Source of the DNA: Podarcis cretensis
Lineage: Eukaryota
DNA: 64,000 nt
Assembly (NCBI GenBank): GCA_951804945.1
Contig: OX638161.1
Coordinates: 29,450,001-29,514,000, forward strand
Reading direction: 5' to 3'
How positions within the stretch are numbered: position 1 is the first letter of the stretch; each line of letters starts with the position of its first letter. A program made the position numbers and the translations under genes. The notes beneath the pieces are model-generated. The model ran no database searches and had not been told where the DNA came from. It saw nothing but the letters and a program-made list of their open reading frames with translations. Shown in pieces: positions 8,009-61,800 of the stretch.

Positions 8009-8070
8009 CTGATGAGAAAGGAGAATTACTGTTACATTTTGCTGCGTGGAGGGGTGACAGTTCTAAAATA

Positions 8071-8312
8071 CAGTGGTACCTCTGGTTACGTACTTAATTC
8101 GTTCCGGAGGTGCGTTTTTAACCTGAAACTATTCTTAACCTGAAGCACCACTTTAGCTAATGGGGCCTCCCACTGCTGCCGTGCCGCCGGAGCACGATTT
8201 CTGTTCTCATCCTGAAGCAAAGTTCTTAACCCAAGGTACTATTTCTGGGTTAGCGGAGTCTGTAACCTGAAGCGTGTGTAACCTGAAGCGTATGTAACCC
8301 GAGGTACCACTG
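8071..8312 (+). mobile_element. Tc1/mariner (Tigger-like) MITE, copy 1
   Basis: TIR CAGTGGTACCTC...GAGGTACCACTG, TA target duplication, 242 bp. Confidence 0.9.
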
Positions 8313-13530: not shown

Positions 13531-13886
13531 TCTGATCTAATTGGTTATAAGACCTGCCAGTGGAGGATCTCAGATGAAGTGAAAAGAGCTAAAATTCCAC
13601 AAAATATAAATTGGGGTGGCTATTGGTGAGAAGAAGCAGCAGCATCCATGCAGGATAAGCATGCAGCCATTGTATTAATGGATTGTACTCACACCCCAAG
13701 TCCAAATGAAGCAGACAGCCATGGATGTAGAGCAGTGCCACACAAACATTTTTGTTTCCTGTCAACTTATCAGGGAAACTGCTGAAGCAGCAGGATTCAG
13801 GGAGAGATGTGCAAAATCATTTGTGGTTTTAGCAGCCTTGCTTTCTTTAAGCAGGACAACTGAGCAACACACACACATGCACACAC

Positions 13887-14615
13887 CTTTCAGAAGTGGC
13901 AATCGACTGCTTTGTTTCTCTGGTGTACAATAGGCAGCTTTTTTTCCAGAAGCCTTTTGCAGTTCTGAGGCCTGCACAGTTTCCAATGTCTCCCCTTCCA
14001 GGGAGATGCTCTCCCCTGAAAGCTTGCCTGCTTCTAGTACACATTCCAAAGTTTTGCTCTCCTTCGGGACATTAGCTTCAACCTCAACTTGGTAAATATG
14101 CTCAGAGGGGTCCAGTTCTGCAACCATGGCACACCTTTCATCTTCTGATACGAATGGCCTTCTCTCATCCAGACTATCCTGCTGAGTTGTTTCATCAGTG
14201 TCTCTGTCTTCAACCTTTATCTGTCCAAATACAACTTCTTTCAAATCACCTCTGAAGTAGAGTGATCCATCAGCTGTTGGGAAATATGCCGTGTGAGCAA
14301 TTCCCACCGGCTTGCTTATCGAAATCAGCAGGGAATCTCTCAAAAGTCCCATCCCTTCCATCATTTTTAGGCTGGCTGGTCCCAATCCTGCACCAACATT
14401 TTTAGGTACTGATGTTGTAGGCACGCGAATAACCACTTTCTCAATAAGATCCTGCAACTGATTATGAATTCTGAAGACAGCCTTCTCCTGGCTTCTTTCA
14501 GCTGTGTGGAACTCCATGTATCCATCTGGCATCTTTAGCAAAGTGGCTACATAAAAGGGTTCCACACAATCTGCTTGTTGGGCTTTATCTGTCTGTGCAG
14601 ATTCAATTTCATTGC
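13887..14615 (-). CDS. MAPT: Tau exon 4A ('big tau' exon), 729 nt / 243 codons
   Basis: Long open frame between exons 4 and 5. Acceptor ctgcttcactag|GC, donor AAAG|gtgtgt, phase 1-1. EDRDTDETTQQDS, QVEVEANVPKE and SRLPLLK match human 4A EDRDVDESSPQDS, HVEITPNVQKE and SRVPQLK. The 5' boundary is less certain than the 3' boundary. Confidence 0.85.
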
Positions 14616-15851
14616 CTAGTGAAGCAGAGATTCTCTCCCCCCCTCCAAATCTCTAGCCCATGATCTCCCACAAAGGGAGTAAATTCTAGGAAATGTGAGG
14701 GTAGCTATAATATGCCTTGGATGATTTCATAGGTGCTCAGATAAATAAGCTATTTTGGATTTTGAGTGATTTCATTCTTAACCCATTTGCAATGTGTTCC
14801 TAAATTCTTGGTTCCACTCTCCTCAGCAATACTGAGGTATGCAGTTCTATTAAGGTATACAAGAAGGGCATTAAGCACAGTAAGAAGTTAGCATGTTTAT
14901 ATCAATACAAAGCCATTTTTGGAACACTACTAAATTAATTATAAATATTTGAGAGAATATCATTAAAAGAGCAAAACTGAATACCACACCACCATTTGCT
15001 ATAGTCAACTCTACTTTGGTTAGCCTAAAAGTAGTCCTCAGAACTCCTAATCTGTTTGAATATTGTACTTCTCAAATGTGAGTTACGATAATGAAACACA
15101 AACACAAGCATTTAACTTATAAAATCTATCAAATATTGCAAAATAATAGAGGCTGATACTGGATGTATAAAAAAAATACACCTCTATTATCAAAACAATT
15201 CTACGAGACATACACATATTTCTTCCCATTTTCAAGAGTTACTTCAACCAGTTTGTTGAAGTAATTCAAAAATTAAATCTGTAGGTTAATTACCTGAAAA
15301 CTTTCATTTTCATAACATCTATCATTATTCTGTAATCTTATTCACTCATGGCCTTTATCACTGTAGTACTAAATGTATTTCTGTTATTTTGGGTTATAAA
15401 AGGCATGCTAAAAAAAAAAAAAAAAAGTTCACAGCTTTAGGGCCACAATGGCAGCGTTCCACCACACTCAATCACCACCATCCACCTCCCTTTCCTATAC
15501 TTTTTACTAGTTCTCTACTATCTTTTTTGAGGCATGTTGCTAAAATTCTAAAACAGTAGTGAAGGTGAATGGCCTCCACAATAAACAATGGTTTAACAAT
15601 GATTTGTTCTATGCATTAGCCTCAAGCTAATGACTCCCCCTTCCCCTCCAGTTTGGCTGTAAGGAGGAGACAGGGAGCTTTGACTTTTGATTTCAATTAA
15701 CCACAGTCAAACACTGCATCCCAAACCTTAACCGTATTTTATCTTAACTTTAATTAGTTGAAAAAAGCCAGCATCACAGACTATTGTTTGAAGTATGCTG
15801 GTTTCAACTGAACAGAATCAACAAACCACAATTTGTCTTGATTTGAACATA

Positions 15852-16080
15852 CAGTGGTATCTCTGGTTACGTACTTAATTCGTTCCGGAGGTCCATTCTT
15901 AACCTGAAACTGTTCTTAACCTGAAGCACCACTTTAGCTAATGGGGCCTCCTGATGCTGCTGCCGCGACACCGCTACACGATTTCTGTTCTCATCCTGAA
16001 GCAAAGTTCTTAACCCGAGGTACTATTTCTGGGTTAGCGGAGTCTGTAACCTGAAGCGTATGTAACCCAAGGTACCACCG
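15852..16080 (+). mobile_element. Tc1/mariner MITE, copy 2
   Basis: Near-identical to 8071-8312, same orientation, TA TSD. Confidence 0.9.
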
Positions 16081-16556: not shown

Positions 16557-16619
16557 CTTGAGCATCCCCCGCAGCATGGTCTTCAAGGCTAGAAGTAGAG
16601 CCTAAGTCTGCTTCCTCAG
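16557..16619 (-). CDS. MAPT: Tau exon 4
   Basis: atgtag|CT...AAG|gtaagt; 63 nt. AEEADLGSTSSLEDHAAGDAQ versus human [22 protein letters not shown]. Confidence 0.95.
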
Positions 16620-19720: not shown

Positions 19721-19807
19721 CTGTATTTCCTTCAGGTATCTCTGCATGCTGGCGAGTTGCATTTCGATTCTCATGCACTCTCTCCTCCACTAATGGAGCA
19801 GTAGCAT
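19721..19807 (-). CDS. MAPT: Tau exon 3 (N2 insert)
   Basis: tttgtttcag|AT...CAG|gtgagg; 87 nt. DATAPLVEERVHENRNATRQHAEIPEGNT. Confidence 0.96.
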
Positions 19808-21638: not shown

Positions 21639-21725
21639 CTTCCACAGTTGGGGTACTCTTAGCATCAGAAGCCTCAGACTCTGGTTCATCAGATCCATCA
21701 TCAACTGGTATCTGGAGGGGAGAGC
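21639..21725 (-). CDS. MAPT: Tau exon 2 (N1 insert)
   Basis: tatttccag|GC...AAG|gtggga; 87 nt. GSPLQIPVDDGSDEPESEASDAKSTPTVE. Confidence 0.96.
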
Positions 21726-29075: not shown

Positions 29076-29191
29076 CATCTTAAACAGCAATTATAAGTTC
29101 CTTGTTAGTAAACTGATATTTAAGCAGTAAAGCTGGCAGCAAGTGGCAATAACATGCACAATAGTAGTTTTGACTAGGATTCATGACTAAC

Positions 29192-29393
29192 CTTTCCTTA
29201 ACCCATTTATACTTCCAGGCTCCATCCCCACATACAGCCTTTCTCCAAACTGTGAACCAACATCCTGGATTCCATCCTGTGGAAGAAGCTCCTTCCTGTC
29301 TCCCACCCGGTCGGGCTCACCTGTCTGGTTCCATCTAGCTTGGCTCACCAAATGGTCATCTGTCATATTGAAATCCTGGTGCTGGTCAGCCAT
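29192..29393 (-). CDS. MAPT: Tau exon 1 coding part (ATG at 29393); ends at 29321 (short form) or 29192 (long form)
   Basis: Acceptor ttttctag| (exon starts at 29410), 17-nt leader, then AAG-ATG-G Kozak context. MADQHQDFNMTDDH resembles MAEPRQEFEVMEDH. Two phase-1 donors: CAG|gtgagc and AAG|gttagt. Confidence 0.9.
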
Positions 29394-29775
29394 CTTGTCA
29401 CAAAGGTTATCTAGAAAATGAATAGTAGTACTGGTTATTGACCATAGCAATAAAGTTTTAGTGTGACTTGAAAAGAAAGAGTAGATTATTGCAGAATGTC
29501 AGTAAAGATTAAAAAGCAAGCCTTCTTCTGTAGCTCCTGCCTCCTTTGCAATACATGTTCATCATCCATCTTACTCCAAAATTGTGACTACCTAAATCCA
29601 TACCAAACAACCAGATCTCTGCAAATATCATTATCACCCTTCGTTGCTACTGGCACCCTTAAGGAAACTTCTGGTCTGTGGACCAAATTTGGCCCACCAA
29701 CTCTCCCCATTTAGCCAATGAAGTAGTTTTCCCCAAACCATACTCACCTGCCTCCCACCTGACATAATAGGCTGT

Positions 29776-50290: not shown

Positions 50291-51813
50291 AGCAACCATG
50301 GATTAGGGAAGTTACAGCACATACATTGACTATTTAAAAGGCTGAATAAATATATGGACAATCCCAGGAATCTTTTTTACCCTAGAATTCTATGATCTCA
50401 CCAGCCTAACCATGCAGCTCTTGCTGACAAATCAGTGGCATTACTTACCAATATAGTAGTTTATTTGCACATTACAATGACCAATTATCCCCACTAAAAA
50501 AGATGGAAGATGCAGCATCAATTACGGGAAAAATCCATAATAAAAATGTGTTTCTATATTCATTCTAGCAAGGCATCTATTTTAATGCCAATTCTGCTGG
50601 TAGACAAAAGGGTTTTTTCCTCTCTATCCCCACCCAAAACTACAGGAGCATACCACAGTCTTTACCCAATGAGAACTGCACTTTGCATCCATGTATTCTA
50701 GCCTAGCAGGGGCGTGACCAGCTGCTGCTATTACACTCAGATCCATTTTTCTCTCAGAGAAAACCATCTGAGACAGAGAGAAAAACAATGAATGCACAGA
50801 ATAATCAAGCTGGAATCTTTGGGTGACTATGATTCTCTAGAAAGCTGTGTGCGCCCCCCCCCCAGCTCTCCACCACATCTTGATCAGGAATCATCTATCT
50901 CGCTGTTAGATTTCTGCTCAGAACAGTAACTATTAACATAATAAGCATGGAGAAGGGGGAAAGTCATTTTCATTCTCTTTCAACTCACCAGTCTTGTGCT
51001 ACTGCTACACCCAAGAATTAAGAATCCTAAATATAAATCCCATAATACTGACCCATATAGAGGAACAAAGCAGCTCAGCTCTTAGAAAAGAATACTGTGC
51101 AGGTCATTTACCCTATCTCAGATTTCCACAATGAAAAAAAAATGCTAACACAGAATACATTTTCCTTTCTTAGGCTATTTTCCCCAACATCATAATTATC
51201 TAAGCAATACTAGAAATATGACATGGACTGCAAAACATGGCACCACTGATATGAAGGAGAGCCCACCCTTTTTCTCTCTCCAAGATCCACACCTACTGCA
51301 GCACCAACAGCCTATCATTCGCCATCACCCTCACAATCAAAACCAGTCTCCCAAGCAGGAAACCAAACCTATCAGAGACAAGAGATGGGGGGAAATGACA
51401 GTTAACAGGGTCAAAAAAGGGGTTCCTTAAAATTCACCTATAATTCCAAATGAAGTTAGCAGATCATTTGTTAAATGATAAAATAAAATGTTACATATGG
51501 GTGTTTTTTAAAAAGAAAAAAAGAAAGTGTGCCTCAAATTGCCAAAAACAAGCAAAAACTGCATTCCAAGCAACATATTACTATACAATGTTATTTTTTT
51601 ATAAAAAAAGAATAAAAGTAGATGTCGTTGTTGCAAAATATTTATAAAGAGATACATACAATTAAGCCTACCCTTGAGATCCTAAGAGACACACCCCTAC
51701 TGCCCCATTTTGCATTACGATTACAAGCCTCTCCACTGAATGATGATAGAAAGGAGCCCTAATAAAGCTACAATAGACCAGGGAGGAAAATAACGTATTT
51801 GTACTGCCACACG

Positions 51814-51989: not shown

Positions 51990-52870
51990 CCGCGTACTGA
52001 AGCCATCGGATCCAAAGCTATATTGCATGGCGCGGCGCCTCTCCCTCCAGCCACTGCAAGCGCATTCACTGCGTAACCGCACGCACCTGTACGCCTAACG
52101 CACCCCCGCCCGTCCATCCCCACCACCCAAAGGTTTGCAAAGTCTGAAGGCCCTCGGTGCAGCTGCTCTCCTAAGAGCAGATCGCACCGTGCTGGGAAAC
52201 CCTACCTGGCGCTGCGGCTGCTAATGCTGCTGCAGGGAGAGCTCTCTGGAAAGTCTCGCTCACCAAAGCCGGGAGGAGGGGGAGTGACAGGAAAGAGGGA
52301 GAGACAGACAGAAAGAGAACGCGCCTATCTAGCGACGGGAGCGCGCACAGGCTCCGGAACCTTCCCAAGAAGAACTCGTATATGCGCGCTCGCAAGGGCC
52401 CTCCCAGCTCCTCGAGAAATAAGGTTGCTCCCACAATGAAAGGCTGCCCGAGATGGCTCTCCCACGCACGCGCACAATGCCCGCCCGTCTCATCTTTCAG
52501 ACACCTCCCTACGACCGTAAGCGCATGCGTGGAGGCTTTACACCGACTCCCAATGTGTTCTTTGTCTTCTTTGGAAAAGCCGGGTTTAAACAAAAAACAC
52601 ACACAAAAATCCTCCTTTTGGAGCCGCGCCGGCGTGAGCGCTATTTATCAAATAATAATAGTTACCGTTCTTTATAGCGCATGGGACACAAGGTCAGCGC
52701 AGCAGGATTACAGACAAAGCAGGGTTTGTTATAGTGCTATAATTAAGAGTGTGGTGACCCACTCTGAAGTCATACTGGAAAGCGTTTTTTAACATCCCTT
52801 CTCCCAGAACACGCATGTTTACACGTAGGTATATACCATAGGGGTCCGCAAGGGGGCGCATTGCTCCCTC
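51990..52870 (-). promoter_or_regulatory. MAPT: CpG island, probable MAPT promoter
   Basis: The only extended CpG-dense non-repeat segment in the window; upstream of exon 1 in MAPT orientation. NRF1-like GCGCATGCGT at 52521-52530; GC-box-like sequences. Confidence 0.7.
52206..52400 (-). other. MAPT: Candidate non-coding exon 0 of MAPT (5' end unknown)
   Basis: Minus-strand donors CCAG|gtaggg (exon end 52206) and TTTG|gtgagc (exon end 52264) inside the CpG island. Pyrimidine-rich leader; exon 1 has an acceptor and therefore needs an upstream exon. Confidence 0.5.
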
Positions 52871-58892: not shown

Positions 58893-61800
58893 GGTACAAA
58901 TCCAAATAAAAATATTGCGGAAGTCAAGCTACCCTTGATATAAAATGTATCCTGTGAAATGCATTCAAGACAGGGCAAGTATACTTGTGCACTACTTCCC
59001 TAGAATATACACACTTTTCTTATAAATCCAATTAGCATTAATCACTTGAAATAGATTCAGAAAAGCACTTATTCTTTCATCTAAATATTTAATTGCCTAA
59101 TCAGCAGCACTTGGGGATCCTACTTGAAGCATTAAAACATTGGATAAAATATATGCTGATACCCTGGGAACTGAATTGGGAGAAGCATTTTCCAAGTATT
59201 TCAGCCACATGGTAGAATTAACATTCATACTCATAGGTAAGTTTTGAAGCACTAACTTATAAAGTATGATACAAGATTATCAATACAGTGTTATTAAAGA
59301 CATTTCACAGGAAGAGTACTACTACTCAGAAGAGGAGATACTGCTTACAAGCAACTCTCTGCCACAGTCATAGGATTTGTCTGATTTAGGGTCCCTCCAT
59401 GACTTTAAAAAGGTTCATTGGTTCAAAATATTAAGCTTATTTTCCCCTTAGACTTAACCTTTGCACTCCAAAGCTATAATATTTTGTGCCACATTTTTGT
59501 TACTGGGGGTGGGGGGAGCTACCTATTTGGTTCCTGCAGCAATATATGTAAATAGTTTGAATTACTCTCAGGAGATCAACTTGGTGTGCTTAGGTGTCTT
59601 AATGATATAAAGGTGTGCTTATTCATACTCATCCTGAAGTAGACAAAGGTAGGGGTCCCCATGCCTGTGAAGAAGACACAACCACTGGCGATTTTTAGTC
59701 TGATATATGTTTGGGCATACAACAAGAGTGATTACTTCTCCTAAAAGACAGAAAACTATCTTTTGTACTTTAAGACACATATAAAACAAACTAAAATAAA
59801 GGTTGCTATCTTTTTCTCTAAGCCCTGATTCTGTGCCTTCAACAGCCATCTAACCCACAGAGATTTAACCAGTAAAATTTTTCTCAATGATATGTTGGAT
59901 TCTATGAAATGACTTCTGTGGGCACTTTTGGCTCATAACTAAATGTTGCTGACCATAGTTAAACCCAATACCACAGAACATTAAATAAAGTATTTCCAGA
60001 CATGCATTTTACAAGCTCCCTCTTGCTCTTAATGTCTCTGTTAGTCAGATCTTTAAAATAATGTTTCTGGCTGCATAATTTGATGCTTCTCTCTCTTTCT
60101 GCAATTATACTTTCTATACTGTTCTGGAAATTCTACAGATATTTGGGTTCATTTGGACCCATTGTGTGGTTAGCAACAGGTTAACACTAACCTCTAAACT
60201 TGAATGAAATCCACTACATTAATATAAAAAAGCCTACATTTGTCTTGCATTTAACCACTCTCTCAGATAAGTAATGATTTATTCTAAGTCAGAGCTGCTA
60301 GATGTATCACATGAGTGATCTTGCAACACACATACTGTATCTCTATGTGGATTGGTATTATTCTCCCCCCTTTTTTGCAATTATCTGCAAGGCTAAACAA
60401 CATAAACATGCATACCAATATTTATTCTAATTACCTTATAAAAGATTCCTTTGAATACTTTTTCCTGGGATTCACCATTTAAACTCTTCCCAGATTTTGT
60501 ACTCTTCAAAGGCAAATTCCAGTTCTGTAGATCACGTTTTTCTTGTTCGGTGTGCAGAAAACTCTCCCAAAGTGCTTCCAGGTATCTGTCAACCTGCAGA
60601 CAATATGGACCCCTGCTCAGTAGCTATGCAGCACTTGATTGCTATTATTTATAAAAAGCATACATCCCTATGGCACTCAGTGTAGCAGGAACACCTGCTG
60701 AATATAACACACAGCCCCCACTTGATTACCAGAAAGGAACACTTTCCCCATTGTACAGATGGACAAACAAAGGGTTAAATGACTCCCCTAAGGTTCCACA
60801 ATGAGTCTGTGACAGAACTGTCTGCCTAAGGTATCCGTATGATCTCTGTCACCATAGCAGCCAGCTAGCCAGCTAACCTCACAATTGGTGTATTTACAAT
60901 CCCCTTTTGGGGTATTATCCCTCATTTTTTATAACAGAAAATTGTAAAGTCTGTGTAAGTCCAGAACCTGCAAAAAAATTAAAAACTTGTCTCACACAGA
61001 TGATTTGAGGGAGTAAGTAGCCTATGTCTAGTCTTGTCTCAGATCCCAGCAATTTATGTATTTAGGCAGCTTGAGTTCTCCCCCTCTAATGCATTTCAAT
61101 TAATTTTAAATAATGGGAACTTAGAAAAAGAAGAAGTATCCTTGCCAAATATTTCCCTTGTATTAGAATATATATTATTTCAAGTTACACAAGTTAGAAA
61201 CCCAACATGTATTTATTAGTTCACTGACCGGGTGATGGACCAGAATGAAAAGCAGGAGGAGACAGAGAAACTGACAACACATTGTAGCAAGGATGCTAGT
61301 GAGAAAATTTGTTTCCCAAATATGAGTAGATGTGAATTCGAAGTTGAATGCTACCATTTAAAACATGAAACCTGCTACAAATTCTCAACAGTGTCAGTAT
61401 GATGGACAGTGTGTTGCCCTTCCACCCCCACATGTAGGAACAGAACCAAGACCAGGTTACTTTAGAACCAGCCCTGCCACTCCTGATACAAAAAGCAGCA
61501 GTGGGAATATAGTTTAATTGAATTCATAGCTGCTAGGAATTCATTATTGAAGGGTTTAATATCTCAAATCTTAACAATTTTCTTTGGCTCCAAACATTCA
61601 AGTTCCATAGTGCTTCAAGAAATGATACAATAGCCCCATTGTTATTCCCTTTAGCCTCTTAACAACCTTATGAGACAGGCTATTCCAAGGCTCCTCTATG
61701 AACTTTAGGGATCAGCAGATATTGGAACATGGATCTCCTACAACCAAATTTAATCTAGTGTAGCATACGGTTATCCAATATGCAAATTATGTCAGTGATA

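Follow-up and report, generated by a model that had tools for sequence, protein, structure and literature searches.

The window, by which we mean the whole 64-kb stretch of Podarcis cretensis DNA analysed here, carries most of a lacertid-type MAPT (tau) gene on its minus strand. Annotated tau maps exon by exon onto the window and adjoining loci (tblastn), tau-type repeats and a proline-rich region lie downstream in the same gene, and exons 2 to 4 together with the end of exon 1 are alignable with mammalian tau (HMMER, PDB tau chains), as expected of a MAPT orthologue. The proteins matched by the long exon carry PF00418, the tubulin-binding repeat family. The 67-aa long form of exon 1 matches Podarcis and Lacerta tau entries at 100% identity, and the exon-1 stretch gave a single match in the genome search. 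An earlier note on this DNA had placed the exon 2 acceptor at 21725 and exon 4 at 16619, and both lie there; exon 3 was absent from its reading of the gene. We denote the upstream donor of exon 1 (29321) as the inner donor and the downstream donor (29192) as the outer donor (Table 1).

Table 1. Features of the lizard MAPT gene around exon 1 (window positions; a slash marks the exon end)
Feature	Position	Strand	Description
Exon 0 (main non-coding first exon), 3' end	52206..52240	-	spliced to 29410; loose ends in X20 (14 reads) and X4
MAPT exon 1, short form	29321..29410	-	17 nt 5' UTR, ATG at 29393, 24 aa + 1 nt; seen in RNA
Inner 5' splice site CAG/GTGAGC	29315..29323	-	exon end 29321; 73 coding nt; phase 1
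129-nt extension, alternatively included	29192..29320	-	43 aa; homologous to second half of mammalian exon 1
Outer 5' splice site AAG/GTTAGT	29186..29194	-	exon end 29192; 202 nt = 67 aa + 1 nt; phase 1
TGCATG, candidate RBFOX-type motif	29153..29158	-	+34 of outer donor
Exon 2, 87 nt	21639..21725	-	joined to either donor in RNA
Exon 3, 87 nt	19721..19807	-	joined directly to inner donor when exon 2 is skipped
Exon 4, 63 nt	16557..16619	-	from sequence and tau mapping

Several further features of the gene were observed. A second non-coding first exon, ending at 60435 on the minus strand, is spliced to 29410 in run X1, and annotated models include further exons upstream, near 50438-50563 and near 51259-51318, which carry upstream starts in frame. 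An open frame of the big-tau exon 4A type lies at window positions 13765-14652 (annotated part about 13888-14295). At an adjoining locus (L002:8683-8781), a repeat exon of the exon-10 type is included in one annotated isoform and absent from another. A 222-bp intronic element, probably a dispersed repeat, is present in two 91% identical copies at about 8065-8283 and 15846-16067 of the window.

Exon 1 has one upstream acceptor and two GT donors, the arrangement of an alternative 5' splice site. The inner donor, together with the 24-residue exon that it ends, was predicted by the earlier note and is found in the sequence and in RNA junctions; the predicted open frame of 129 nt beyond it, leading to a second phase-1 donor after GLRK, is likewise present in the sequence. 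The inner donor sits within Gly-Glu codons of the long form. Both donors match the consensus at 7 of 9 positions, the inner one with one further wobble position. As 876 of the 7172 129-nt windows in intron 1 (12%) are stop-free, the open frame alone is weak evidence for the extension; stronger evidence comes from the RNA junctions, from cross-species conservation and from its exon-like composition (GC 52% versus 32-34% in the flanking introns; 65% purine). Its 43 residues include 8 acidic, 6 basic and 8 Gly. Being contiguous with exon 1, the extension is not a separate cassette exon of the kind that makes the canonical tau N-terminal insert. Local folds at the two donors are weak (-8.5 and -7.3 kcal/mol, calculated without a shuffle control), and a hairpin like that of exon 10 was set aside for this reason.

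To follow donor use in RNA, we placed reads or contigs from 4 of 24 runs (X1, X4, X20 and X22; tissue and stage not given) on positions 29102-29488, which span exon 1 and its flanks, and read the partner exons from the loose ends by comparison with exon 2, exon 3 and the upstream exons. Both donors are used, the inner one more. X4 consists of contigs whose RNA status was guessed by the tool but which are spliced; here the outer donor is joined to exon 2 (depth 13.6), and the inner donor to exon 2 (depth 6.4) and to exon 3 (depth 18.3). Both donors are thus joined to the same acceptor, that of exon 2, with the outer-donor junction found in only 1 of the 4 runs. The outer donor accounts for about one third of the summed junction-contig depth in X4 (13.6/38.3), a crude figure, contig depth being a poor measure of level. 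Among the 20 placed raw single-cell reads of X20, 11 are junction reads from the inner donor (6 to exon 2, 5 to exon 3) and no outer-donor junction is among those listed; 1 of 12 informative reads runs into the extension. In X1 the inner donor is joined to exon 3 (depth 24.9), and in X22 none of 5 reads enters the extension. Apparent donor use differs among the four runs.

These junctions bear out the suggestion that the lizard keeps both an avian-type and a mammal-type donor. Of the junctions proposed for counting, 29321 to 21725 and 29192 to 21725 were both seen; the proposed partner at 16619 was not, as none of the junctions listed for the four runs takes exon 1 straight to exon 4, and exons 2 and 3 are the main partners. 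Exon 1 is joined to exon 3 without exon 2 in three of the four runs (X1, X4 and X20, the last with 5 such reads versus 6 with exon 2), and exon 3 also occurs without exon 2 in annotated proteins of lizards and of one marsupial (P0588). The inclusion of exon 3 is thus not restricted to transcripts with exon 2 in this lizard.

Two sets of sequences fit neither donor. A low-depth contig of X1 (2.7; 29102-29338) runs unspliced through both donors into intron 1 and may be pre-mRNA, intron retention or DNA. In X22, 4 of the 5 reads leave exon 1 near 29323, two bases before the inner donor, for sequence that matched neither the window nor the genome nor any of five neighbouring loci; these reads were counted for neither donor, and the exit sequence may be a chimera, a variant or an unassembled exon.

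Both forms are already present in automated protein annotations, and our cross-species picture is drawn from such predicted proteins, taken from the best rows of score-ranked searches and not from genomes. The long exon query found 98 proteins, 40 with the long form and 58 with the short (24-aa) form. Seven species of five genera have both (three Podarcis species, Lacerta, Anolis sagrei, Sceloporus and Tiliqua; automated annotations), and the long form occurs in nine genera (Podarcis, Lacerta, Zootoca, Anolis, Sceloporus, Tiliqua, Lerista, Eublepharis and Gekko). From geckos to iguanians, the extension in these nine genera measures 43-50 aa and always runs from GE[PA] to GLRK. Short forms only were found among the retrieved proteins of 19 other squamate genera (10 lizard, 9 snake), where absence is weak evidence. 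The earlier note had proposed following the frame through squamates, turtles, crocodilians and birds: it is open in the squamate long forms, which is partly built in, these being predicted proteins, and the birds, turtles and crocodilians retrieved have the short form.

Across five other squamate genera, identity of the extension to Podarcis is 41/43 in Zootoca and 26-31/43 (60-72%) in anole, skink and geckos. In the same comparison exon 3 is identical at 20-23 of 29 residues and exon 2 at 26-28 of 29, and the first 100 aa of exon 4A are identical at 61 positions between Anolis and Podarcis. These values suggest a constraint on the extension outside lacertids that is near that of exon 3, or not far below it, and near that of the start of exon 4A. 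A king cobra gene model (P0445) continues beyond the inner donor, and what follows is a diverged copy of the extension without the GLRK end. The score of this copy was reached by 0 of 2000 shuffles against Sceloporus, 1 of 2000 against Anolis and 221 of 2000 against Podarcis, which suggests decay in snakes.

The main rival explanation treats the outer donor as a decaying relic: a site of ancestral origin that has become leaky and minor, yields a product of little function and is being lost across squamates, just as birds, crocodilians and turtles lost it. Such decay would accord with its low use in raw reads (1/12 in X20, 0/5 in X22), with the 19 squamate genera for which only short forms were found, with the diverged copy in king cobra P0445 and with the loss in lacertids of an aromatic residue described below. 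It sits poorly with the outer donor's share of the summed X4 depth (about a third, 13.6/38.3, crude as that is), and with an open frame in which the identity of lacertids to geckos, skinks and anoles, at 60-72%, is little lower than that of exon 3. We regard the relic reading as somewhat unlikely.

A profile search of cluster representatives (best 150 of 1266) allowed 73 N-termini to be compared, ten of them named; in opossum, dunnart, axolotl and two caecilians, related sequence runs on beyond the position of the inner donor. Homology was tested by comparing local alignment scores with those of 2000 shuffles. All 12 squamate-marsupial pairs reached p<=0.003, and 14 of 18 squamate-amphibian pairs reached p<0.05, the failing ones being the three Podarcis pairs and Anolis-axolotl; with 0/3 amphibian pairs significant, the Podarcis segment is the weakest homologue. 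In the control for these two sets, deer, which lacks the motif considered below, 0/6 pairs were significant. For squamate-placental pairs (five placentals), the score was reached by fewer than 100 of 2000 shuffles in 24 of 25 cases. The true segment also scored above every other window of the same length in opossum or bat tau (6/6 comparisons). The extension can thus be aligned with the latter half of marsupial exon 1, with that of many placentals, and with the tau of caecilians and salamanders. At the level of protein alignment, similarity to amphibian tau is shown for skinks and geckos and partly for Anolis; amphibian exon boundaries were inferred from the alignment, and the amphibian segments probably include a few exon-2 residues.

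The outer donor ends the exon at the position aligned with the mammalian GLK end, in phase 1 with a final G, and the junction residue (G/D/E/A) varies with the acceptor exon in lizards and marsupials alike. Human exon 1 does end in GLK, as the earlier note had said, after 44 aa (PMC9755724, available supplement). The outer donor is likely orthologous to the mammalian exon-1 donor, judging from these alignments. The alternative that the extension arose by exonisation of intron within squamates, with a coincidental likeness of GLRK to GLK, could draw on the stop-free state of 12% of 129-nt intron windows and on a direct HMMER match between lizard and human that is limited to the last exon-1 residues. 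It is largely refuted by the significant, position-specific similarity that marsupials, placentals and caecilians show to the segment at each of its ends and by the shared G-initial, acceptor-dependent junction residue, and we give it hardly any weight.

The long form is general in two groups outside squamates. Exon 1 is long in every one of the 83 marsupial rows that include it (43 listed rows and 40 of 41 cluster members, the other member being without exon 1), and in 13 of 13 axolotl and caecilian proteins. The birds among the matches listed are all short (57 rows and the 16 of 31 further members that have exon 1), and so are all crocodilian (5) and turtle (2) proteins retrieved. Non-squamate long forms outranking short forms were absent from the best 120 of 870 matches. 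The 24 aa of the short form, which had been likened to the short chicken N-terminus, equal the length of exon 1 in eagle, painted turtle and crocodile in the available supplement of PMC9755724.

Because the proteins retrieved are long in marsupials, salamanders and caecilians and short in birds, turtles and crocodilians, the ancestral exon was likely the long one. Our preferred reading, in which we have good confidence, is that two donors are used in RNA, that the 43-aa stretch aligns with mammalian exon 1, and that the long form is likely the ancestral tetrapod state and the inner donor likely an innovation of the sauropsid stem; the sample is without tuatara, monotremes, lungfish and coelacanth, and its outgroup evidence consists of proteins, not DNA. 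The 43 aa that the earlier note called an insert are alternatively included, as it had suggested, but are better understood as a piece of the ancestral exon 1 that was kept. Parsimony places the gain of the inner donor on the sauropsid stem, where Gly-Glu codons opening the segment would have come to read as a donor; birds, crocodilians and turtles would then have fixed the short form and lost the outer donor, and several lizard lineages would have retained both. In mammals the outer donor alone would have survived, and internal deletions would have shortened the stretch. Estimated divergence times are 352 million years for amphibians and mammals and 312 million years for sauropsids and mammals (PMC6759874, available text).

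A different history would place both donors in the amniote or tetrapod ancestor, with the inner one lost in mammals and the outer one in archelosaurs, so that squamates preserve the ancestral state. Marsupials and one caecilian have Gly-Glu at the inner-donor position, whose codons could form a donor (known from proteins only), but not one short form occurs among the 83 marsupial and 13 salamander and caecilian proteins. Marsupial matches of 56 residues score 99-115 bits against a list cut-off of 64, and a marsupial short form should therefore have appeared. We consider an ancestral pair of donors improbable. A sturgeon protein named MAP2 by its source (P0187) also has GEP and GYALLQ at similar positions of its N-terminus; the segment may be as old as bony fishes, or P0187 may be a misnamed tau.

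Stefanoska 2018 reportedly described a primate-unique tau motif. Residues 17/18-28 of human tau are called primate-unique in the available text of three papers (PMC6999090, PMC6342323, PMC12325407); they are described as binding EB proteins, synapsin-1, synaptotagmin-1, 14-3-3 and annexin A5 and as favouring secretion (PMC6999090, PMC6342323), with Tyr18 a Fyn site (PMC6999090). Human exon 1 and dunnart tau can be aligned from the first human residue onward, the GDRKD and GGY elements included (HMMER), and the marsupial segment falls opposite human residues 17-44. The motif itself is aligned with the beginning of the lizard extension, as aromatic-x-x-G-D-R-K-E/D. The direct lizard-human HMMER alignment covers only the last exon-1 residues, and the link from lizards to human residues 17-28 runs via marsupial and placental intermediates.

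Among the 77 placental rows listed (bats, seals, manatee, armadillo, horse and golden mole; the best-scoring of 604 and hence enriched), 67 contain G[DE]RK[DE] in a 47-aa exon. The available supplement of PMC9755724 has the motif in cat, lacks it in mouse, rat and elephant and lacks most of it in marmoset; it is also absent in deer and sheep. By alignment, then, the motif is not primate-unique, being present in cat, bats, seals, manatee, armadillo, golden mole and marsupials, and its occurrence outside primates may already have been noted in earlier literature. Where human tau has Tyr18, the alignment shows Tyr for skinks, leopard gecko, cobra, axolotl, caecilians and four placentals; anole, Sceloporus and marsupials have Phe there, and Podarcis has Asp (2 of 19 rows surveyed are off the pattern). 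At window positions 29306-29311, lacertids encode Asp-Arg where other lizards have Tyr/Phe-Gln, and the aromatic residue at the Tyr18 position is gone.

In mammals the presence or absence of the motif is fixed by deletion, whereas in lizards it is switched by splicing. It is possible, at slightly less than an even chance in our judgement, that lizards toggle the Tyr18/GDRKD segment by regulated donor choice, the segment being of early-tetrapod age and having been lost repeatedly, by deletion in rodents, ruminants, elephant and marmoset and by the new donor in birds, crocodilians and turtles.

The two donors, much alike in their match to the consensus, would compete for U1 snRNP, so that the choice would be made at U1 recognition. 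The earlier note had pointed to a UGCAUG about 35 nt downstream of the distal donor, and it is present there, at +34. We take TGCATG to be an RBFOX-type motif; by its sequence and its place in the proximal downstream intron it is a candidate RBFOX site, noticed post hoc. TGCATG occurs 42 times on the minus strand of the window, which gives a chance expectation of about 3% in 45 positions. In the presence of RBFOX, a donor with UGCAUG just downstream is usually favoured. We propose, tentatively and with more doubt than confidence, that the inner donor is the default and that an intronic factor, possibly RBFOX at this UGCAUG, raises outer-donor use in some tissues or stages; the presence of RBFOX would then raise the long form in neurons or muscle. 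The projection region at tau's N-terminus is expected to be disordered. By analogy with human tau, the stretch could lengthen this disordered domain and add a docking region of the kind that binds EB proteins and synaptic partners, a role that we find plausible but somewhat short of probable.

Differences between human and mouse in the secretion of tau, its binding partners and susceptibility to disease have been explained by reference to the human 17-28 motif (PMC6999090, PMC6342323, available text). If the motif is an old tetrapod segment that rodents lost, there was no primate gain and mouse is the derived case. One gene making tau with and without the segment would allow its role to be tested free of cross-species confounds, and lizard neurons would, if this is true, be a natural within-animal test of segment function. 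A single new donor would also explain the short N-terminus of birds, turtles and crocodiles. The value of the finding lies in this evolutionary reading and in making the role of the motif testable.

Alternative 5' splice sites are an ordinary mechanism. Among the best-ranked matches of our literature search we found none on squamate exon-1 donors. The available text of PMC4815063 calls some N-terminal motifs mammal-exclusive and does not mention reptile donors, and its text supplements contain 0 of the 3 motifs searched for. Predicted RefSeq/UniRef tau isoforms of Podarcis, Lacerta, Anolis, Sceloporus and Tiliqua have the same two exon-1 ends; these are automated models that carry no comment on usage, origin or homology.

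Within MAPT, splice-site choice also alters exon size in 6p/6d and 4a/4a-L (PMC8909800, PMC9755724, available text), but exon 6p/6d are frame-shifting alternative 3' sites and 4a-L is a longer form of exon 4a, whereas the lizard event is an in-frame alternative 5' site in exon 1. Human exon 1A, of 135 bp, is an exon in its own right and is believed to trigger NMD (PMC12904492, available text); the lizard extension is contiguous with exon 1. In mammalian MAPT, as given in the available parts of several papers (PMC6999090, PMC8909800, PMC9755724, PMC12904492, PMC9587068, PMC11228892), exon 1 is constitutive and exon 3 is never included without exon 2, and these textbook rules fail in this reptile. 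The lizard gene shares with the mammalian 0N/1N/2N system the 87-nt exons 2 and 3, phase-1 junctions and a projection domain of variable length. It differs from that system (PMC6999090, PMC8909800, available text) in an exon 1 that has two donors and joins exon 3 directly, which upholds the earlier suggestion of an isoform axis beyond 0N/1N/2N, with 43 aa gained or lost by an in-frame alternative 5' site and not by a cassette exon.
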